Below, piece after piece: positions 3,951 to 56,354 of a stretch of DNA of 64,000 bases; positions within the stretch are counted from its first letter, which is position 1; every line of letters starts with the position of its first letter. Source of the DNA: a virus; IMG/VR virus record IMGVR_UViG_3300045988_103705, one strand, 5' to 3'. The notes below the pieces were generated by a model. It did not search any database. It had not been told where the DNA came from and saw nothing but the letters and a program-made list of their open reading frames with translations. The position numbers and the translations under genes were made by a program.

Positions 3951-4671
3951 AAAAGAATGGACAAGTTGGCATAGGGGAAATCTTATGTAAATTTCTCTTA
4001 TGTCTTTGTTCAATGTTTTTATATATCTCATATGGAGGAGTAATACCATTAAGTAGGAAATTATCTAGGACATCATAAGAAAATCCTAAATTTTCCTCAT
4101 CTGTTAAACCGCTTAATCCATCCTCTGGAGGCTTTTCAATGAAGTTCTTTGGCAATCCAAGCTCAATACCAATTTCTTTAACTTCCGTGGCAGTATAATT
4201 AGAGAGAATAGAAAAATCTCCTGCTGCATCTCCAAATTTAGTAGAATAGCCTACATAGTCTTCACTTCTATTGCAAGTATTCACAACTCTTCCATGACGG
4301 CTCGCGGCGATTGCATAAAGGATATTCATTCTTACTCTTGCTGGAACATTACTTGTAACTTGCGGCTGAATTCTAATATCATTGGGTAAAGACAAGAAAA
4401 TCTCCTGACAAGCTGAACCAATATTGATGTTGTAATGCTCTGTAATTTCGAGGTAATCAATTACCTCATTAGAAACATCAATATCATATTGGAATCCCTG
4501 TGGCATTTGTACGGCAATTACTCGATTCGGGCCAAGAGCCTTACAAAGAAGAGCCGCAGCCACTGTAGAATCTTTGCCGCCAGAAATCCCGATAACAGCT
4601 TTACACTCCGGCCCGTTTTTTATGAAATACTCTTTAATCCAATCTATAATTTTAGTAACCGTATTAGTCAT
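3946..4671 (-). CDS. nadE: NH3-dependent NAD+ synthetase
   Basis: PP-loop GISGGKDS; length 241 aa. Confidence 0.75.
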   Translation of the reverse strand: MTNTVTKIIDWIKEYFIKNGPECKAVIGISGGKDSTVAAALLCKALGPNRVIAVQMPQGFQYDIDVSNEVIDYLEITEHYNINIGSACQEIFLSLPNDIRIQPQVTSNVPARVRMNILYAIAASRHGRVVNTCNRSEDYVGYSTKFGDAAGDFSILSNYTATEVKEIGIELGLPKNFIEKPPEDGLSGLTDEENLGFSYDVLDNFLLNGITPPYEIYKNIEQRHKRNLHKISPMPTCPFFS

Positions 4672-8728: not shown

Positions 8729-10000
8729 TTAGATCTCTTCCTCCTGAGCCTCTTCCATGTCAGGTACATTCTCACTTTCTTTAATAATTCCCTCGATGAC
8801 TTTAAACTCATAAGTCTTAGACTTAAAAGCTGTGAAAGCACGACGATTTACAATTCGGACAACGACGCCCTCTTTTACATGGGTGCGGCCGATCGGATCA
8901 GTGAGATCTTCGAAGTATTTGTTAATGCGCTCCTGCAAATCCTCTATGGTAGTAAATTCAAAATCCTCAATCACAGGAACTCGATTAAAGCCATGAGCAT
9001 TACACCATTCAGTAATCTCGTCAGGAGTCCACTCTCTTTCTCCATTTTCAGAGGTAATACGATAAATATACATCTTGCTCTGACCAGGCTCACATCCATA
9101 AGAGAAAATAGAACGCTTACCAAACTGCTTTACAAAAGTCTTATCATTGACTTTGGTATTATCTCCGATAGGCATAATGGTGTTCTCTTCATTAGGGCCG
9201 TAATAACCCACTACTTCGTAGAAAACTTCCATTCCGGGCTCAAGATAAGGTTTCAATGCTTCATGATGTGGCATACGAAACTGGTCATTTCCATAAAATC
9301 CCTGAGAGTTCTCTGTGACTACACAACGACGAGTTCCAAGAACATAAGCCTGCTTAGTGCGCTTTTTCATATGGAAGAGGCGACGGAAGAAACCATTAGG
9401 AAGCTAAGCATAAGTATTCATAGAGCGCTGAGAAGTTCCGTGCATTTTAAGGGTCATATTGAGAATATCTCCGGAGCGGAACTTATCAAGATTATATGCC
9501 AATTGTTCAGTATCAGTATGCATAGAGAACTCAGGATATGTAATTCCCTCAGCCTTACGACCTTTATAAGAAGTCTTAACCTGACCAGTGGGAGTCTTGC
9601 GCTTAGGAATGTATTTACGGCAAAATTCTTTGTCGTTGATAGTGTTTACCTTATCTCCATCTTTCCAGTTCTGATTTCCGAATTTTTCATAAACTTTATC
9701 AAGAGCAATTACAACACCAGAATTCTGATTGCCGCGAAGCTTAATAGCCCTGATATGTCCATTATTTTCGATGTAGCCACCCTGAGGAGTTCCATCCTCG
9801 TTCTTGCGGAAGAGGCAAAATTCATTCCCGAACCATCTCTCAATCTCGCCATCAGTAGGAAGATAAAGAACCAACTGACCGGTTTGCATATCAGGGCCGA
9901 CAATTACGCCCTCATTGAAACAATCTGCAAGATAAAGGCGGTCACTATTCTCGTCCTTCCGCACATTCTGCAACTTAGTTACAAGACCAAAATATGCCAT
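8729..10000 (-). CDS. ATP-dependent RNA ligase with an in-frame TAG
   Basis: motif I KMHGTS (KxHG), motif V KEGVVVRI; the two track ORFs (9404..10000 and 8729..9370) are in the same frame and joined by TAG at 9404-9406. Confidence 0.55.
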
Positions 10001-10019
10001 TCTATATCATTCTCCTTTC

Positions 10020-25976: not shown

Positions 25977-26064
25977 TGGTGGGCCAGGAGGGAATCGCAC
26001 CCACTCGAGCTCGAAAGCACCGGTTTTACAGACCGGGGTGTCTACTTTATCACTTTACTGACCC
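25977..26064 (-). tRNA. tRNA-Tyr(GUA)
   Basis: class II; anticodon stem CCGGT/ACCGG, loop CTGTAAA; CCA encoded. Confidence 0.75.
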
Positions 26065-26252: not shown

Positions 26253-26371
26253 GGCGGGGAGTGCAGGACTCGAACCTGCGACATCGTGCACCCAAAGCAA
26301 GTTAAAGATTGCTGTTACGGTCTTTAACAAGACCAAACTATAACGCGCTCTACCAACTGAGCTAACTCCCC
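26253..26371 (-). ncRNA. atypical 119-nt tRNA-like gene with about 40 nt of inserted hairpins
   Basis: canonical acceptor GGGGAGT/ACTCCCC, D-arm GCTCAGTTGGTAGAGC and T-arm GCAGGTTCGAGTCCTGC, but 67 nt lie between D and T arms, including hairpins GGTCTT-GTTA-AAGACC and AGCAA-TCTTTAAC-TTGCT. Confidence 0.45.
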
Positions 26372-28738: not shown

Positions 28739-28856
28739 TGGTGGAGCTGCGGGGAGTCGAACCCCGGTCTTGAGCAACCTAGTCAACTAAAACATACTTA
28801 CACGATAGCTTATATTTTATCATTAAGCGGATATGGCATAAGCATCCTCGCTCCAC
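28739..28856 (-). ncRNA. atypical 118-nt tRNA-like gene with inserted sequence
   Basis: acceptor GTGGAGC/GCTCCAC, T-arm CGGGGTTCGACTCCCCG, variable-arm-like hairpin GGTT-GCTCAA-GACC, about 50 nt where the 17-nt anticodon arm should be. Confidence 0.4.
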
Positions 28857-29026
28857 AAATGTACCAGTTTCTGGCCTCCACCACTTTGTTTAATTATAGC
28901 TTGAACAAAGAAAAAGCATGGGTTAAAAACTGCTATCAAGCAGCAAGATAATTTTCGAAATAATCTTCGTCAGTTAATTTTTAAGTCGCTTCGTAAGGTG
29001 ATTGCCTACCCGTGTGTTTTAGCCTT

Positions 29027-29809
29027 TTAGTCCCCAATCGAATCCAGATTATCAGCCCCATGTGTATACTTCCACTTATATCCTGCCGCAGTTTTGCGTT
29101 TTCCTCTAGCGCATTCTCCAATATGTCTATTGTTATATTCTTTCACCGCGGCCGCTAAAGTGGGCCATTCTTTAACTAAAGTACCATCAATCGTATATTG
29201 TAATACTGATTTAGACCTTGAGGCATATAGATTTCTTTCCTTCAATATATTTTTAATCGTATCAAAGTCATGATGATATTTTTTAGTTAAATCTGTAATT
29301 GTAGTACCTTGAGAATATTCTCTACAAATAGAATCTTTCTCTTGTTGAGAGATCTCGCTATATGAAGTATATGTTTGTTTATTTCTTAGTCCTAACTCTT
29401 CAAGCAAATCTCTTAACCGATTAGGTTGGATTCTTAAATCTTTAGTAATTTCGGTTAAAGTTTTTTCATCTTTATGATGAAGATAATACTCAACTGCTTT
29501 ATCTATATCTGTATAATATGGATCATTCTGCCCACCGCGAGTTGAATTATACCCGTATTCTTGAGAATTATAATAAGCAATCTAAAAGCGTTCTCTTTCA
29601 TTAAGATACTCAGTAGGACATTCTTCAATCATAGAAATAGAAAAATGTTCACTCCCAAGTTCACGAATAGCTTTATGGAATTTACTATTATCTTTATTTA
29701 CTTTAGCATCATATAAATGTTCTTTTAATCGAGATTCTAAAGTTCCACGAGTCTAACCAATATAAATCTAATCGTTAATATCATTAGAAATCTTGTAGAT
29801 GTATGACAT
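29027..29809 (-). CDS. GIY-YIG homing endonuclease, TAG-recoded
   Basis: N-terminus MSYIYKISNDIND(Q)IYIG(Q)TRGTLESRLKEH (GIY..YIG..R..E); three in-frame TAG; C-terminal AAGYKWKY DNA-binding module; 261 codons. Confidence 0.6.
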
Positions 29810-45872: not shown

Positions 45873-45995
45873 AGAGGCATTTTTGTCCAAAATTTTCTAC
45901 GAGTGTCCAAAAATTTCTAATAAAATGTCCAATTTTTTCTAATAAGTTGTCCAGAAATTTCTAATGGTTGGTCTAAAATCTGATATTGTGGACAT
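45873..45995. repeat. iteron array: five direct repeats of about 24 bp, TGTCCAAAAATTTCTAATAAAA
   Basis: tgtccaaaattttctac / tgtccaaaaatttctaataaaa / tgtccaattttttctaataag / ttgtccagaaatttctaatgg / ttggtctaaaatctgatattg, then the inverted repeat TGTGGACA; directly upstream of the RHH gene. Confidence 0.7.
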
Positions 45996-46089
45996 AGTAT
46001 AATTGTAATAAAAAAATATTAAAAAAGTTGGACAACCGCAATTAATTATGTTATAATAAAAGTAAAGATATAGTAGAGAGGTGATTTAT

Positions 46090-46228
46090 ATGGCTTAGAT
46101 AGCAGCTCGTATTTCTGAGGAAGAAAAACAAGAGTTAGAAAAGTATTGTAGAGAGCACGATATTAAATTGTCATAGCTTATTAGATGGGCTATAAAAGAA
46201 TATATTGAGAAAAATAAAGTAGACTAAA
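46090..46228 (+). CDS. ribbon-helix-helix (CopG/Arc-like) DNA-binding protein, TAG-recoded; frame continuity across the A-run at 46138-46143 needs checking
   Basis: GAGAGGTGA Shine-Dalgarno plus ATG. A one-base frame adjustment in the A-run gives MAQIAARISEEEKQELEKYCREHDIKLSQLIRWAIKEYIEKNKVD. This has the full ribbon-helix-helix pattern and uses two TAG as Gln. Confidence 0.4.
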
Positions 46229-46254
46229 GGAGATTAAACTAAATGACTAATGAT

Positions 46255-46464
46255 ACTTATAAAGTTTTTACAGTAAAGTTAGCACGCAAACTCTGTGATC
46301 TTGGTTTTATTATTGTTGGAACTGTTCCTAATGTTTAGAAACCTTGGTTAAATGTTTATCTTTTTGAAGATAGTTAGGATTTAAGGGATGCAGTTTAGAA
46401 GTATAAAGGGATAAGTTCGCTATTGGAGGATGATTGCCATGGCAGACAAAAGAAGAAGTCCTAA
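46255..46464 (+). CDS. hypothetical protein, TAG-recoded; start region unresolved
   Basis: frame KVFTVKLARKLCDLGFIIVGTVPNV(Q)KPWLNVYLFEDS(Q)DLRDAV(Q)KYKG... ends TAA at 46462-46464; the nearby ATG at 46244 may need a 1-nt frame adjustment. Confidence 0.3.
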
Positions 46465-46828
46465 TTAGCGAACTATTAATCATATTCATAAGGAACCATG
46501 TGATACTAATAATATATATGCTAGGATTAATAAGGAAGCGTTATTTGCGGCCCGTAGAGAGTTGACAGATGGAGAGTTTTCTTTGTGGATATTTTTTGCT
46601 AGTCAATCTGAGAAGTTAATTGATTATGATTTTGGGCCTACTATTATAGAAAAAGAGCTTGGTATAAAGAGAGCGAAATATACAAGTGCAATAGATGGAT
46701 TGGTAAAAAAGGGATATTTAGTTCCAGTTGAGAGAAAAGGATATTACGATTTTTACGAGATTCCTATTGATAGTGACGACGACAAGTATAATTATATAGC
46801 TCCAAACGGAGAGAAATTTTCTTTTTAA
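46439..46828 (+). CDS. winged-helix protein (replication-initiator or regulator-like), one in-frame TAG
   Basis: GGAGGA plus ATG at 46439; TAG at 46466-46468; ...IEKELGIKRAKYTSAIDGLVKKGYLV winged-helix segment; the track ORF 46562..46828 is its C-terminal part. Confidence 0.45.
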
Positions 46829-46837
46829 TCGTATTTC

Positions 46838-47100
46838 TGCAATACTATGAAAAATTTCATGTATTTCTGAGAATACTATGATTTCATCATATTGTGAAAA
46901 AGCTATGAAATTTTCATGTATTTGTTGGAAAGCGATGAAATTGTTTTCATGGTATTCTGATAATACTATGAAATTAAATAAAAAGGATTTTCATAGCTTT
47001 CCAACAATACCATGTCATAGTATTCTGACAATACCATGAAAGTAAATAAAAATCCATTTCATGGTATTCTGACAATACAACAAATATAACATATATTAGA
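46838..47100. repeat. second iteron array (TTTCATGGTATTCTGACAATAC-type repeats; ATGAAA/TTTCAT inverted motifs)
   Basis: at least seven partly inverted copies of aatactatgaaa / tttcatggtattctga(c/t)aatac in 260 bp of AT-rich ORF-free sequence. Confidence 0.65.
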
Positions 47101-47173
47101 TAACAGAGTTAAGATAACAGTCGCGACTTTTTTTATGTATTTGTGAAAAAGCGATGAGTAGGAGGATTAAGGC

Positions 47174-47593
47174 ATGGAAGTATTTAAACCGATTAAGGTA
47201 GAAAATTATCAATTCATGAAGAATGGATTAAATTAGTATGAACCAGTATTAGTTTACTTTAAAGATGATGAAGAAGAAGGCAAGGTATATTTTGTAAAGA
47301 ATAAATTTGATGATAAGTTAGAAGAATGGATGGAAGAGAATTTAAAGGTAGAAGGAAGAAGTAGAGTTATAGTAGATAAGTATCATAATAGGATAAGTAT
47401 AGATGTTTTTACTCAAGATTTAGAGGACTCTATAACCGATTTAGAAAAACGAATTGAAAAGTTAGAAGAAGGTTTTAGAGAAATCGAATTGAAAAATCGA
47501 GATAAAAATGGAGAGATATATGATTTGGTTGGAAGGATAAGAGAGATAAATAGAACTGGATAGAGATGTAGATTATCTTTATATGAAGATTGA
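47174..47593 (+). CDS. hypothetical coiled-coil protein, TAG-recoded
   Basis: GGAGGA plus ATG at 47174; TAG at 47237 and 47561 read through to TGA at 47591. Confidence 0.45.
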
Positions 47594-47726
47594 AAGAAAT
47601 TAAAGGAAATTAAAAGAAGTTTATAAAATGATGGAGTTGGGTGCCGATCGGGTCTAGGTACGAACCATCACAACACTCGTCACAACGATCGTAAACCTAG
47701 CCTTCCGCAATTATAATATATAAAAA

Positions 47727-47760
47727 AGGAGAGAAGCTACAATACTTCTCTCCTTTAATC
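47727..47760. terminator. bidirectional hairpin terminator
   Basis: aaaaaaggagagaagctacaatacttctctcctttaatcttttt. Confidence 0.6.
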
Positions 47761-47772
47761 TTTTTCCTCTTG

Positions 47773-48228
47773 TTACTTTAGATGCTTCAAAAACTCCATA
47801 ATATTATCTTCATCAGACCGAGTATTACCCTTAATCTGAGACATACTCTTCGCGAGAGTATCAGAAATAGAATCAACAGCAATGTCAATTACTTCATCAA
47901 GACTCTCTGCATTAACAACCTTAGCGGAAGTCTTAGCAGTTACAGTCATAGCCTGCATAAACTGCTCAATATCCTTAGCTGTCCACTTAGGATTGCTCTT
48001 GCTATAAACCAACGCAGCCACACGGCCAACGTCATCCTCAGTAAGAGACAAGTCATCAACATTTTCATAGAAAGTAGACTCAATCTCATCCAGAAGATTA
48101 TCTCGCTCATGGTCTGCGGCGTTAGCCTCGGAGATTCTATTCATGGCATCAGTAAATGCCTTTGCAATCTCCTCCTGAGTAGAACCATTCTGCATTGCAT
48201 CACGAATCATAATCTCATAACTATTCAT
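47773..48228 (-). CDS. hypothetical protein
   Basis: 151 aa acidic. Confidence 0.4.
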   Translation of the reverse strand: MNSYEIMIRDAMQNGSTQEEIAKAFTDAMNRISEANAADHERDNLLDEIESTFYENVDDLSLTEDDVGRVAALVYSKSNPKWTAKDIEQFMQAMTVTAKTSAKVVNAESLDEVIDIAVDSISDTLAKSMSQIKGNTRSDEDNIMEFLKHLK

Positions 48229-48327
48229 AATAAGTTCTTTTAGTTAGAAAAGCGTTATGATGCTTCTTAAACTAAAATCCTCCTTTTCTTTATCTTATGT
48301 ATATATTATATTATATTTTTTATATAT

Positions 48328-48960
48328 TGTCGAACCGATCGGGTCTAGATAAAAAGATCGCTTTAACGGAATCCCGCGGAAAAGATTTTTACTTTTTAAA
48401 TTGTTAGCAACATCTTTGCTATTGTTTGCTGTATCTTTAATAGTTTTAATTCTGTGAATATCAAGAAATTTTGAGAAAAACGAGGCATTTTTTGCTTATT
48501 TTTAAGTAAATTTGTTAGAAAAACGCGTATTTTTGCAAGATTTTAGAGGTTTTTCGTTATATTTTGCGATAACAAGAGGTAAAATAATGCGGACCGATCG
48601 GTTTATCTAGCTAAAATCTCTATTTTTGAGCTATTTTTATCATAAAATCGTGTTAAACCGATCGGTTCCGCGAAAGAAAACTCTGGTCGTATTTGTTTTT
48701 CATAGCTATATCTTTGCTATTGCTAGTTGTATCTTAGAAAGTTTTGGTGCTATGAATACTTGACAATTTTAAGATTTTTATTATAAAAATTTGGACGAGA
48801 GAGCCAATATTGTCGAACCGATCGGGTTTAGATAAAGGAAGAAGTAAAGTAGGGCCGATCGGTGTTTGGGAGAGGGCGTTATGAATTTTGGGAAAATCGC
48901 TATGAAGTTGCGTTATGGCCAAGTTGCTATGAAAATTTGCGCTATGGTCCGATCGGGGAA
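48328..48960. repeat. cluster of CCGATCGG palindromes in an ORF-free region
   Basis: accgatcgggtctag (48330), ccgatcggt (48597), accgatcggt (48662), accgatcgggt (48817), gccgatcggt (48853), tccgatcggg (48950); one more at 47642. Confidence 0.6.
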
Positions 48961-49039
48961 ACTCGGGCCGAGTCGCCCGCGACCGGCCCGTCGAGTTTAG
49001 GAAATATGAAATAAAAGAGAGGCCGAAGCCTCTCTTTTC

Positions 49040-49291
49040 TTAATCCTCGTTTTCTAAATTGATTTCTCCTATACAGTTACACCGTATCGGAGATTCAAGA
49101 ACAAATTCATCTCCATATCCAACGATAGTTATTTCTCCATACTTTTTACAATACTCGTCTATCTTTTCGATTAGACTATTCCAATCTTTCTCTTGCGCTT
49201 TTTGTTTTCTAAGTGCCACTTCTTTATAGGCGGTAGCACTCAACCATTGCAACTCCTCGTCATTCAGTTTGTTGAAATCAATATCAACCAT
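49040..49291 (-). CDS. hypothetical protein
   Basis: 83 aa. Confidence 0.35.
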   Translation of the reverse strand: MVDIDFNKLNDEELQWLSATAYKEVALRKQKAQEKDWNSLIEKIDEYCKKYGEITIVGYGDEFVLESPIRCNCIGEINLENED

Positions 49292-49951: not shown

Positions 49952-50302
49952 TTAATTGAGAATTATCGGGTATGCCTTGCGAATAACCACCGTAACCATG
50001 GCCGGGGGAGTGTCGCACAAGAAACGGTCATTTCTGATAAAACGACCAATTCCCATACTCTGCCACAAAGTTCGGTTTACATCCTCGTATCGTAGGGTAT
50101 TATACTTGGAAAGTTTGATATGCCAATCATAGATAAAGGAACCATCTTCCGGCATGGTGTAATCTGGCGCCCGCTTATAATTTCTCGTATGTTCTGCGGC
50201 TCTGCGCTCAAGGTCATTTGTCGTACCAATCTTGAGAATATAGCGCCCCTTTTTGTCGATATAATGTCCGACATATAGGAACTCTTTTCCCCTTGTCTGC
50301 AA
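49952..50302 (-). CDS. GIY-YIG-like (T5orf172/Bro-N-type) domain protein
   Basis: FLYVGHYIDKKGRYILKIGTTNDLERRAAEH. Confidence 0.5.
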   Translation of the reverse strand: MQTRGKEFLYVGHYIDKKGRYILKIGTTNDLERRAAEHTRNYKRAPDYTMPEDGSFIYDWHIKLSKYNTLRYEDVNRTLWQSMGIGRFIRNDRFLCDTPPAMVTVVIRKAYPIILN

Positions 50303-50814: not shown

Positions 50815-51225
50815 TTACGCCATCTTAAAAAGGGACTTGCCCTTCTTTTCCGTGCAGACCACTCGACCATCGAGTTTCAACTGCCGCACAAGGGCGGCGA
50901 CCTTCTGGTTAGAATAGGCCGTCAGATCAGGAATAGCCTTAAAAATTTCCGTGCAGGTCACGCCATCGGTATCGGCATCCAGATCAGCCAGATACTCCAT
51001 AATCTGCTCCTTAAAATTCTCGTTCTCCTGCTGGGTGGGAGTCAGCTTCTTGTCACCGCTAGAGCTATTCTTCTTACGCAGAAGCTCCAGCTCATGGTCA
51101 ATGACAGTAATAGCCACCTCGATGGTAGTGCCATACTTTACCTCGCCGTCAGTCAAGAGGGCCTTAATGTCCTCAAAACGCTGGGCCTTAGTAATGCGGA
51201 TTTTCTTCTCGTCCATAATATACAT
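50815..51225 (-). CDS. hypothetical protein (possible winged-helix)
   Basis: 136 aa. Confidence 0.35.
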   Translation of the reverse strand: MYIMDEKKIRITKAQRFEDIKALLTDGEVKYGTTIEVAITVIDHELELLRKKNSSSGDKKLTPTQQENENFKEQIMEYLADLDADTDGVTCTEIFKAIPDLTAYSNQKVAALVRQLKLDGRVVCTEKKGKSLFKMA

Positions 51226-51264
51226 CCTTTCTGGTTTTTAGGACTGTCCTTGTCCTTTGATTAT

Positions 51265-51293
51265 ATTGTACCACACTATTTGGTACTTGTCAA
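51265..51293 (-). promoter_or_regulatory. sigma-70-type promoter TTGACA-N17-TACAAT
   Basis: minus-strand CCTCTTGACAagtaccaaatagtgtggTACAAT, about 40 nt upstream of the ATG at 51225. Confidence 0.6.
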
Positions 51294-51436
51294 GAGGTTT
51301 TTCAAACTTTTTTCAAGAACTTTTGCCCTTTACTTGTTTGCCCTCTCAACCTCCCTTATAGTGTAACACACTTTGGAAAGTTTGTCAAGCCCTTTTTGTT
51401 TAATTTTCAAGGTACATTGCCTTGTTTTCTGTACTT

Positions 51437-51465
51437 ATTATAGCACATCTTCAAAGGCTTGTCAA
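51437..51465 (-). promoter_or_regulatory. sigma-70 consensus promoter TTGACA-N17-TATAAT (tandem, no adjacent ORF)
   Basis: minus-strand CCTCTTGACAagcctttgaagatgtgcTATAAT. Confidence 0.55.
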
Positions 51466-51573
51466 GAGGTTTTTGAAAGATTTTTGAGAAATTCGCTGTC
51501 ACTGTCTGCCGTTCGTCTCTCTCACTTTCTGAATGTATTTTACCACAAGCAAAAGCAGATTGCAAGCGTCAAA

Positions 51574-51651: not shown

Positions 51652-51955
51652 CATTACCATTGAAAAATTCGGCCCGCGTCAGCCATCCGCGGGCCGTCGA
51701 CCTTTTAGATATAAAAAAAAATAAGAGGGCTGTAAAGCCCTCTTAAATATCAATCATATAACTATAAACCATATCCCAAAGCGGCATATCATCCAGAAGG
51801 ATATTTACAGTCAAAAGTCCGGTTTCTGTCGGCCCATCAACAAACCATCCCAGCCGCTGCGTAAGGTGAATAACCTCATAGACATAATCGGGGTCAAGAT
51901 GGTTAGTGGTAAACTGTCTTGAAAACATTTCTTTTCCTTTCTATCGGGCGGGGCT

Positions 51956-54027: not shown

Positions 54028-54489
54028 TTAACTTTCACATATATTTGCAAGAAATCTTGCAGAAAGTTTAACCATGTCATGGACAGATTCTTCGTTATTG
54101 CTATTTTTATAGCAAATAAAACCAACCTGGTCGCCATTCACAAGAATTGGTGTAATAAACATACTTTCCCATTTTGTCGCCGAACTGCGAATATCAATCC
54201 AGTCATCGGGAACTCTTGTAATTCCAAAGGAACGCGGCCCGCATAAAATTCCATCATTGTCAAAAATAGCCGCGGCGATTCCGTTAGATGAAAGGGCATT
54301 TTGCATTTGTTTAGCGTAAGAGGAAAATTCTCCCATTATAGAATATTTCTTAAAAACTACGCCGCCATCTTCTTCAAGAAAAATCTCTAATGGGTCGCCT
54401 TCTCTAATATGAAGGTTTCTACGGATTTCCTTTGGAATTACTATCCGGCCCAAATCATCAATACGGCGCACAATTCCAGTAGCTTTCAT
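54028..54489 (-). CDS. SpoVT/AbrB-family transcriptional regulator (swapped-hairpin N-domain plus C-terminal sensor-like domain)
   Basis: GIVRRIDDLGRIVIPKEIRRNL. Confidence 0.6.
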   Translation of the reverse strand: MKATGIVRRIDDLGRIVIPKEIRRNLHIREGDPLEIFLEEDGGVVFKKYSIMGEFSSYAKQMQNALSSNGIAAAIFDNDGILCGPRSFGITRVPDDWIDIRSSATKWESMFITPILVNGDQVGFICYKNSNNEESVHDMVKLSARFLANICES

Positions 54490-55582: not shown

Positions 55583-56354
55583 ATTGCCTCTTGATAAAAA
55601 ATTCCGGCCGCGCCTGTGGTGCACGGCCGGGCGAACGAATAAAAAAAAAGAACCTCCTGAATTTCAGGAGGTCATTAATTTCTGCATACCAACAACTCCC
55701 TTTCTTTTGAGAAGTCAATCGGCATTTTCAACAATCTTTAATCCGTTTGCTTGGATAATTTTCATAGCTTCTTCAAGCGAGGAATCAACCGATCCGCAGT
55801 CAATACAGATATATTTTCTACCATCTTTTACCATAGTAGTAAAATAGTATTCCTAACCGGAAGTAAGTCCCATTTGTTCACGCAAGCGAATCGGAATCAT
55901 AATTCTACCACTTGAATCTAATTTGCGAGAGAAAGTAGTTTCTTGCATTTTGATAAATAAATTCTAGTGACCTAGGCTCGTGCGAAAAACGACTCCATCA
56001 CGGGAATCGCCGATTTAGAACAATCGGAAGGAACATTTACCACTCGCAAGGCATTTTCTGGCAGAACTGAGACATAGGACAATTTTTACAAGAATCCTAG
56101 TTCAAACAGAACTCCAAAATAACCGCGAGTGCTTTCAGCACTTCTAAGGTCATTAGAAAAACTCCTTTCTTTATTTTTCTATAATTATTATAATATATTT
56201 TTTTGAAAAAATCAATAGGGCCGGCATTACGCCAGCCCTAATCTCTGCAACCAAACCAGATGGTATTTACCAATGTGAAGTAGAACTGTGCCATATCCCT
56301 TATCCGTCCAGACAGTGGAGCCGATAGGATATGTGTGCGGTAAACGCTCAATAC

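Follow-up and report, generated by a model that had tools for sequence, protein, structure and literature searches.

Control regions with several operators are well known in phages and plasmids, for instance the OL-OR sites of the lambda and 186 CI proteins, the auxiliary operators of lac and gal, and the OB sites of KorB in RK2. We describe here a conserved element of around 1.35-1.4 kilobases (kb) in IMG/VR virus record IMGVR_UViG_3300045988_103705, whose 64,000 nucleotides (nt) are called the window below. The element consists of two non-coding parts, 47594-47772 and 48229-49010 (about 0.78 kb), around one gene, and it carries repeated copies of the 8-base-pair (bp) palindrome CCGATCGG. Tentatively, we interpret it as a conserved cis-regulatory region in which these palindromes are putative operators for a dimeric DNA-binding regulator of early promoters, an interpretation that we regard as plausible rather than probable. 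Like the multi-operator regions, the element has several dyad-symmetric copies over around 1 kb, one of them at or in a core promoter and the others distant, and the sites are conserved while the spacers drift. Unlike them, its core is a contiguous 8-bp palindrome and not a pair of separated half-sites, four of the sites have an oriented CTAG, and the cognate protein is at the candidate stage; no ParB/KorB-like or CI-like gene was found near the element.

Two other known systems share single traits with it. The met-box of MetJ, AGACGTCT, is an 8-bp palindrome read by a ribbon-helix-helix dimer, and met-boxes are directly abutting tandem units. The element likewise has a contiguous perfect 8-bp palindrome as its repeated operator-type unit, and a ribbon-helix-helix gene lies 1.4 kb away; however, its sites are 37-691 bp apart and do not abut. 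The pac site of phage P1, with seven GATC-containing hexamers and Dam-regulated cleavage, occupies 162 bp inside the gene of the terminase small subunit. Seven GATC-containing repeats in a single locus are also found here, but the element spans 1.3 kb and encloses an unrelated gene, and no terminase was found among the ten largest open reading frames (ORFs) of the window.

In phage T5, a conserved untranslated region of 1.66 kb with repeats and palindromes lies at the inner end of the terminal repeat, and the genes next to it are less well conserved (bioRxiv 10.1101/866236). Our element resembles this injection-stop (iss) region in size (more than 1 kb), in being non-coding and in its place at the inner boundary of an early gene block, whereas the T5 region is built around eight DnaA boxes in the proven terminal repeat of a coliphage, and the element has no DnaA boxes and belongs to a phage with a Firmicute host. 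ORF-free repeat regions are also present in Herelleviridae, namely the 1.2-kb silent zone of Listeria phage CKA15 and the origin of phage K (PMC12282133), and kayvirus 812 has a variable tandem repeat at the end of its unit genome, beside the terminal repeat (PMC6445280). What our phage has in common with them is to be a large Firmicutes phage with many tRNAs, a phage sigma factor, early genes with consensus sigma-A promoters and an ORF-free repeat-rich region near variable tandem repeats. Nevertheless, the Herelleviridae regions combine an AT-rich segment with simple tandem repeats, for instance (TAGGA)n, while the palindromes of the element are dispersed and GC-rich. The kinship itself is weak, Herelleviridae being the best cultured-phage matches of one window ATPase at 44% identity.

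To our knowledge, gut phages with recoded stop codons are known almost solely from metagenomes, and their regulatory circuitry is unmapped. An operator cluster in an intergenic region of a phage is, taken alone, an expected kind of feature. What the element gives is a sharply defined conserved cis-motif, 8 bp long or 14 bp in its oriented form, located at the junction of standard-code early genes and TAG-dependent genes, and the phage family is an abundant one (more than 120 clusters of the neighbouring protein, with contigs of up to about 148 kb). The motif is a handle for finding phage DNA-binding partners and for probing the control of early and late promoters; if it marks a terminus or an origin, it would anchor the genome maps of the family.

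Regarding the number of copies, CCGATCGG occurs nine times in the window against 0.29 expected, and none of 100 shuffles reached nine. Seven copies (P1 to P7 in the table) lie within 1.3 kb, 47644-48956, which is exactly the number given in the first-pass annotation for this region. The remaining two, at 8889 and 60247, sit within long ORFs, and the variants with one mismatch are placed randomly in the window, with none in the region. All the intergenic copies are at a single locus, unlike the scatter of repetitive extragenic palindromic (REP) sequences or miniature inverted-repeat transposable elements (MITEs), for which we checked. The spacings between consecutive copies (691, 259, 64, 160, 37 and 94 bp) are irregular and show no tandem arrangement. 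The distance from P3 to P4 is 64-66 bp in three lineages of relatives and 58 bp in L034, and the other spacings show no phasing. The flanks that had been reported for the motif, (A/G)CCGATCGG(G/T)T, hold for five of the seven sites, P1 starting with G and P2, P3, P4 and P5 with A, and fail for the other two. A literature search for CCGATCGG found nothing relevant.

Four sites of the window (P1, P1', P2 and P3, of which P1' has the variant ACGATCGT) form the composite CCGATCGG-N2-5-CTAG, all in one orientation, and the composite was found nowhere else in the 64 kb. A further motif, YCCGCR, occurs after P1', after a degenerate GATCG that follows P2, and after P4.

Relatives, referred to here by L numbers, were reached in three independent ways: through the protein of 151 amino acids (aa) encoded by the enclosed gene, through the sequence of the GC-rich hairpin near P7, and through the P1 composite. 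Around 40 related contigs of five lineages each have 3-7 exact copies of CCGATCGG in the same element, located from the hairpin to just past the 3' end of the 151-aa gene, even where the identity of the element falls to 40-52%. In 22 related loci the 1.4-kb element contains 129 sites and the 191 kb outside it contain 2, a density about 400-fold higher inside; relatedness inflates the two numbers, but they still differ extremely. Single sites are gained and lost: L034 has an additional one (at -69), L017 lost P5 with P6 kept, and L022 lost P6 with P5 kept. This is the behaviour expected of redundant binding sites. Among close relatives the core of P5 is invariant while its flanking bases vary.

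Compared with L011 and L014, the window shows mosaic breakpoints directly left of P1 and directly right of the hairpin, therefore P1 and the hairpin delimit the conserved unit. The hairpin is identical in the relatives found through the protein (L014-L023); in the other lineages its identity is by construction, because the hairpin was used as bait. It is one of several further conserved blocks in the element, the others being TTYGGGARAW, GAAAATTTTGC and YCCGCR. A gene with a T5orf172 domain (49952-50302 in the window) is the conserved right-hand neighbour and adjoins the hairpin in L011 and L014. A blastn search of the region against 50,697 phage records gave no match; no cultured phage with the region was found, and the element is outside any described family. 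L002, L044 and the high-GC loci among L046-L061 were discarded as chance matches to the search patterns. In the most distant lineages, L041 (5549-5564, 5767-5782 and 6490-6520) and L052 (around 4420-4650), a second, 16-bp perfect palindrome, ATACTGTATACAGTAT, stands beside the CCGATCGG sites in the same element.

The first-pass annotation had considered the region to be about 0.8 kb free of ORFs, with no credible ORF in it. This is right for 48229-49010 and 47594-47772, but 47773-48228 holds, on the minus strand, the gene of the 151-aa protein, so the premise was wrong for one third of the interval concerned. Gene calling with table 15, which had been proposed as the check, gave no conserved gene across the non-coding part, the only gene being this standard-code one. 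Actually, 48229-49010 has no long ORF under codes 11, 15 and 4 (in 48240-49010 the code-15 ORFs have at most 101 codons), and near-identical relatives differ by frameshifting indels of 1 nt at three places of the non-coding part, from which it follows that no conserved coding gene spans 48229-49010. The sole small ORF preceded by a sequence like a ribosome-binding site (GGGAGAGGG; ORF at 48881-49000) is broken by a 1-nt indel in relatives and was rejected.

The element could also act at the RNA level, either as a non-coding RNA of about 250 nt on the plus strand (around 48795-49040) or, on the minus strand, as a long leader for the gene of the 151-aa protein; the CCGAUCGG copies, being self-complementary, would then pair, P3 with P4 and P5 with P6, and the GC hairpin would be a 5' or 3' stabiliser or a terminator. 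Promoter-like elements and terminators flank such transcripts, the minimum free energy folds do pair P5 with P6 and P3 with P4, and a perfect promoter of the L024 lineage would begin a minus-strand transcript at the hairpin. Moreover, a second GC-rich hairpin at 51670-51712 (CGGCCCGCGGATGGCTGACGCGGGCCG then AATTTTT) lies just past another, canonical terminator, with the same style and context as the one at 48964-48990, and GC hairpins of a similar kind, with TTTGTCAAG after them, are present in L041 and L047. Nevertheless, no Rfam family reached the gathering threshold in the element and what matched at E<=1 was at chance level, and RNAalifold on 13 diverse sequences from five lineages recovered only the invariant GC hairpin (covariation term -0.48 kcal/mol), with no covariation beyond it. 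The z-scores of the folds are only -1.8 to -2.1, a longer inverted repeat around P3/P4 (GCGGACCGATCGGTTTA...TAAACCGATCGGTTCCGC) is uncompensated in the L024 and L027 lineages, and the sites vary singly and not in pairs, as L017 and L022 illustrate. A function of the transcript is in our opinion very unlikely. With neither coding nor RNA covariation, the conserved blocks are primary-sequence motifs, and this is the signature of protein-DNA recognition.

The sites also appear to be in register with promoter-like elements; the promoters mentioned here are consensus predictions in AT-rich DNA, where 26 matches were found against 19 expected. Transcription starts are predicted at around 48298 (minus strand), 48772 (minus strand) and 48795 (plus strand). 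In four lineages P2 is centred near -41 relative to the promoter of the 151-aa gene, 39.5-40.5 nt ahead of its predicted start (promoters with 11/12 or 10/12 matches), and the -35 hexamers of these lineages differ (TCGACA, TTGGCA, TTGCAA). In the L020 lineage the equivalent of P6 is inside the spacer of TAGAAA-16-TATAAT, and in the distant relative L047 a palindrome is inside the 17-nt spacer of a perfect TTGACA-17-TATAAT. The L024 lineage has a perfect TTGACA-17-TATAAT on the minus strand that fires into the hairpin, with P7 at about +33. The positions in the spacers and at +33 suggest repression, whereas the position at -41 could be of either sign.

The mechanism that we propose is that a dimeric sequence-specific protein would occupy the 8-bp dyad-symmetric operators, and that their occupancy would control the sigma-A-type promoters in and around the element. 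The P2 operator adjoins the -35 of the 151-aa gene promoter; the other copies would raise the local occupancy and may allow looping. We rank the operator cluster first since it explains why the motif is dyad-symmetric and conserved at the DNA level, why redundant copies turn over and why the sites are confined to one control region, as well as their register with promoters. A packaging site, a methylation-sensitive regulatory region and a recombination hotspot had been suggested in the first pass; among these, the regulatory region fits best, through the conservation of the DNA motif and the register with sigma-A-type promoters.

Several points weigh against an operator cluster. In L026 the -35 is separated from the nearest site by 21 nt and in L041 by around 105 nt, which shows that the -41 register is not universal, and the promoters themselves are consensus matches only, of a kind that AT-rich DNA yields in large numbers. 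P1 follows the 3' ends of both convergent genes, a place with no evident promoter. The GC hairpin, TTYGGGARAW, GAAAATTTTGC and the YCCGCR blocks are left unexplained. A scan of IMG/VR for the palindrome in the spacers of perfect promoters gave 7 loci with 3 distinct sequences, against around 8 expected by chance on a rough estimate; therefore, outside this phage family, promoters of this kind do not exceed the chance level. Finally, CTAG lies within 6 nt of the palindrome on the hairpin side in 41 unique contexts and on the opposite side in none. This one-way extension would be superfluous for a symmetric dimer, and it hints at directional packaging, replication or injection.

Three more observations belong to the promoters. 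Two IMG/VR contigs of 63 kb and 18 kb (L064 1215-1243 and L069 1182-1210) share one promoter with each other, a perfect TTGACA-17-TATAAT with the 14-bp palindrome TAACCGATCGGTTA in the spacer, and this may be an independent use of the same operator, to judge from the sequence. Spo0A boxes were considered, given that TGTCGAA abuts P2 and P5, and were rejected, since the heptamer is not enriched (9 against 6 expected); only the copy at P2 is conserved, because TGTCGAA there is the -35 hexamer itself. A CodY-like site, AATTTTGGGAAAATC, was set aside, its conserved core CGGGARA not fitting the CodY consensus.

A directional process is what would be expected if the element were a cis-site associated with a terminus, that is, a packaging recognition site, the boundary of a long terminal repeat or an injection stop of the T5 type, bordering a standard-code early ('host-takeover') module on its inner side. 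The strict orientation of the composite motif suits this, as does the location of the element exactly between TAG-free early-type genes (49-62 kb) and a TAG-recoded module. Variable tandem repeats lie directly left of it, to be compared with those of kayvirus 812, and the parallels with the T5 region and with P1 pac drawn above also point this way. However, the terminase search in the ten largest window ORFs gave no family match and the neighbours are small early-type genes; the sites extend around a gene, unlike compact pac sites; DnaA boxes are absent, unlike in the T5 injection-stop region; and the relationship to Herelleviridae depends on the one ATPase.

The ends of contigs do not help this explanation either. 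The nine Logan/ENA contigs fetched through the 151-aa protein (L014-L023), one of them of 144,559 bp, all end 113-709 nt past the gene, within tandem repeats of 18-34 nt. Repeats of this kind break k-mer assembly, therefore these ends represent a systematic assembly break and give no sign of a genome end. Furthermore, the IMG/VR assemblies cross the element at internal coordinates. A genome end at P1 was rejected for these reasons, and we consider a terminus-associated site in general quite unlikely.

The element might instead be a replication origin or an origin-associated assembly region, where palindromes, GYTATGR repeats and hairpin would recruit an initiator and accessory proteins, and the promoters would activate or prime replication. 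Several unrelated repeat families are crowded into this ORF-free DNA, among them the short direct repeats of the GCTATGAA type that the first-pass annotation had already seen, with five GYTATGR copies. Their YATGAA half-site is common to an iteron-like array at 46823-47160, around nine copies of an imperfect palindrome of 28-34 nt (TTTCATGGTATTCTGACAATACCATGAAA), which follows a TAG-recoded gene with a weak HTH_36 match. In L026 the homologous gene has eight TCTGAAAAMC repeats within its 3' part, in the style of lambda O, and gene plus array resemble an initiator gene with its iterons. Promoters enter the block next to the hairpin from the plus strand in the window and the L020 lineages and from the minus strand in the L024 lineage, and these opposite directions suggest that transcription through the block matters more than the transcript. 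The ORF-free repeat regions of Herelleviridae proposed as origins (PMC12282133) are a further point in favour.

Nevertheless, the spacing of the palindromes is irregular, without tandem iterons, and 47600-49030 has no DnaA box (up to 1 mismatch), the AT-rich stretches coinciding with the promoter and the 5' untranslated region (UTR). No replication genes were identified nearby, and the HTH_36 match (E=0.001, 19.2 bits) is below the Pfam cut-off of 25; the protein had no PDB match and too few database homologues. The putative initiator module also requires TAG suppression, which is odd for an early replication function, and if an origin is present, the array at 46823-47160 fits better than the palindrome region. 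We therefore hold an origin at the palindromes to be unlikely, while giving it more credit than the other alternatives. The different readings are not mutually exclusive, as a control region can double as an origin.

Sites of modification or cleavage were also weighed: the palindromes could be targets of a methyltransferase specific for GATC or CGATCG, of an endonuclease with strand-specific nicking or homing activity (such as the T5orf172/GIY-YIG-like protein, whose gene is conserved beside the element), or boundaries of module exchange. A contiguous 8-bp palindrome is typical of recognition of the restriction-modification type, and nine copies of GATC remain in the region although the window as a whole is depleted of it (observed/expected 0.48). 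Against this, no methyltransferase motif was found in the real ORFs of the window, a weak test limited to 64 kb, and CGATCG is not avoided in the window (12 observed against 7.6 expected). The fixed promoter register would be left unexplained. For module exchange, and for the recombination hotspot of the first pass, the support is circumstantial and consists of the mosaic breakpoints at both edges of the element, which are expected for any conserved element beside variable cargo. Of all the explanations this is the one that we find least probable. Other 4-bp palindromes besides GATC are scarce in the whole window (observed/expected 0.12 for ACGT, 0.43 for CTAG and 0.43 for GTAC), and this shortage suggests restriction pressure from the host.

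The position of the element with respect to the genetic code also has to be considered. The phage is a large gut phage that decodes TAG as an amino acid. In-frame TAG is found in plus-strand modules only, with 2-4 per gene at 46.0-47.6 kb (46066-47593) and 11 in a sigma-like gene (62197-63312), and there is none in the eleven minus-strand genes examined on both sides of the element. Thus, genes of two kinds meet at the element, standard-code ones of early type and recoded ones. The former are the small TAG-free ORFs of 49-62 kb, behind tandem consensus sigma-A promoters; the recoded plus-strand module beside the element encodes a ribbon-helix-helix protein, a DUF5659 protein (46243-46464), the weak-HTH_36 protein (46440-46828) and a coiled-coil protein, and its translation needs TAG suppression, as does that of the sigma-like factor. 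The step from an AT-rich to a GC-rich module that had been noticed in the first pass is real, the GC content being 0.30-0.32 at 45-48 kb and 0.40-0.47 at 50-58 kb. In the stretch around the element, strand and genetic code coincide.

One could imagine on these grounds that the CCGATCGG cluster is a switchboard at the border of the two genetic-code compartments, coupling stop-codon recoding to early-to-late transcription or to DNA entry. In one version, a regulator made only after expression of the suppressor tRNA would bind CCGATCGG and shut off the standard-code early promoters; in another, an early winged-helix regulator would hold the boundary until the code switch; the element could also act as a boundary or injection-stop signal of the early block. 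This extension is speculative and, in our judgement, improbable.

Coordinates of the features of the element in the window, from left to right
Feature	Coordinates (strand)	Sequence or structure	Context and conservation
Site P1	47644..47657 (+)	CCGATCGG-GT-CTAG composite	Directly after the stop of the plus-strand TAG-recoded 140-aa gene; in every lineage as GTGCCGATCGGNNCTAG
Site P1'	47685..47700 (+)	Variant palindrome ACGATCGT-AAAC-CTAG, then TTCCGCAAT	Kept in window-like and L020-like lineages, degenerate in the L024 lineage
Bidirectional intrinsic terminator	47725..47756	Stem of 12-13 bp, T runs on both strands	Separates the 140-aa (+) gene from the 151-aa (-) gene, which are convergent; invariant in close relatives
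151-aa gene	47773..48228 (-)	All-helical acidic protein	No in-frame TAG
5' UTR of the 151-aa gene	48238..48287 (-)	Shine-Dalgarno AAAAGGAGGA at 48278-48287; 16-bp hairpin at 48238-48277	Hairpin between Shine-Dalgarno and ATG
Predicted promoter of the 151-aa gene	48305..48333 (-)	-35 TCGACA (48333..48328), 17-nt spacer, -10 TATAAT (48310..48305)	11/12 consensus matches
Site P2	48335..48348 (+)	CCGATCGG-GT-CTAG	Touches the -35 hexamer
72-nt repeat, copy 1	48405..48476 (+)	74% identity to copy 2	Both copies kept in the L020 lineage
Site P3	48594..48610 (+)	GCGGA-CCGATCGG-TTTAT-CTAG	
Site P4	48658..48674 (+)	CCGATCGG-TT-CCGCGAAAG	
72-nt repeat, copy 2	48703..48774 (+)	Right end bears the -35 of the plus-strand promoter	Preceded by the P3/P4 pair
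Promoter-like element	48760..48787 (+)	TTGACA-16-TATAAA	Toward the hairpin; kept in window-like and L020-like lineages
Promoter-like element	48807..48780 (-)	TTGGCT-16-TATAAT	Divergent overlap with the plus-strand element at 48760..48787
Site P5	48818..48825		Absent in L017/L018
Site P6	48855..48862		Mutated in L022
Five direct GYTATGR repeats	48877..48945 (+)	GCTATGAA type	
Site P7	48949..48956		8 nt from the GC hairpin
GC-rich hairpin	48964..48990	CGGGCCGAGTCGCCCGCGACCGGCCCG	Right edge of the conserved element
Bidirectional intrinsic terminator	49013..49038		Ends the upstream minus-strand early genes; stem sequence varies between lineages

Regarding the layout, a palindrome unit and a 72-nt repeat together make a duplicated module of around 150-180 nt per copy.

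If the palindromes are operators, the better binder candidate, on structural modelling, is an early TAG-free protein of 136 aa (50815-51225). It was modelled with a C-terminal winged helix (predicted local distance difference test, pLDDT, 86) that superposes on the winged-helix domains of ArsR-family proteins and TubR (65-69 residues, 1.3-2.9 A); with the whole PerR and MepR chains the superposition is looser, around 9-12 A over 95-113 columns. The window, L026 and L041 lineages all retain its putative recognition helix, SNQKV(A/S)AL, and the L047 promoter that contains a palindrome drives a paralogue of this protein. A SpoVT/AbrB-type protein of 153 aa (54028-54489) is another candidate, and a small AbrB-like protein is encoded at 55715-55948. 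Ahead of the 136-aa gene there are three tandem near-consensus sigma-A promoters (51240-51480, minus strand; TTGACA-17-TAtAAT, each with an upstream TG).

The proteins of the recoded module are less convincing. The ribbon-helix-helix protein (46066-46227) is unlikely to be the binder, as its DNA-reading strand differs (QIAARIS against STVSVRL) between lineages that share CCGATCGG; together with its own TGTCCA promoter repeat, this makes it a poor candidate. The helix-turn-helix protein of the same module also appears a poor candidate from its sequence, its DNA-reading part and the associated repeats likewise differing between lineages that share the motif. Four direct repeats, TGTCCAAAAWTTTCTAAT, at 45884-45965 with a spacing of 20-22 nt, directly precede two promoter-like elements that belong to the ribbon-helix-helix gene, and they are probably the operators of that gene.

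The 151-aa gene enclosed in the element is conserved yet fast-evolving, small and early. Its homologues in databases, with 44-99% identity, form the more than 120 clusters mentioned above, and its nucleotide identity is 76-93%, with in-frame indels, where the flanks are around 99% identical. The AlphaFold2 model of the protein is all helical (pLDDT 84); no Pfam, PHROG or PDB sequence match and no PDB fold match was found. The Shine-Dalgarno sequence is 45 nt from the ATG, and the order Shine-Dalgarno, hairpin, ATG is kept with other stem sequences in the L020, L023 and L024 lineages, which suggests a hairpin-bridged ribosome-binding site.

Regarding the phage itself, the related contigs found through the 151-aa protein and the hairpin sequence reach 144-149 kb. 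The strong AGGAGG ribosome-binding sites and the TTGACA/TATAAT promoters indicate a Firmicutes host, and one related contig was binned with an uncultured Eubacterium metagenome-assembled genome; we infer a Eubacterium-type host. Among the 31 tRNA genes of the window there is a TAG suppressor (anticodon CTA, 20097-20171), and the window also encodes a Ro-like RNA-binding protein, an RNA ligase, nicotinamide phosphoribosyltransferase (NAMPT) and the sigma-like factor. The Ro/TROVE-like protein (phrog_850, E=1e-119) and the RNA ligase adjoin the tRNA array (17392-18933 and 8729-10006, both on the minus strand), and no Y-RNA family matched in the 64-kb window at the Rfam gathering threshold. A transfer-messenger RNA at 28739-29059 (minus strand) was found by Rfam with 76.8 bits and was not reported by ARAGORN. 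Rfam gave two more tRNA-like matches, 26255-26371 and 25980-26064, both on the minus strand, one of them 117 nt long and possibly containing an intron.

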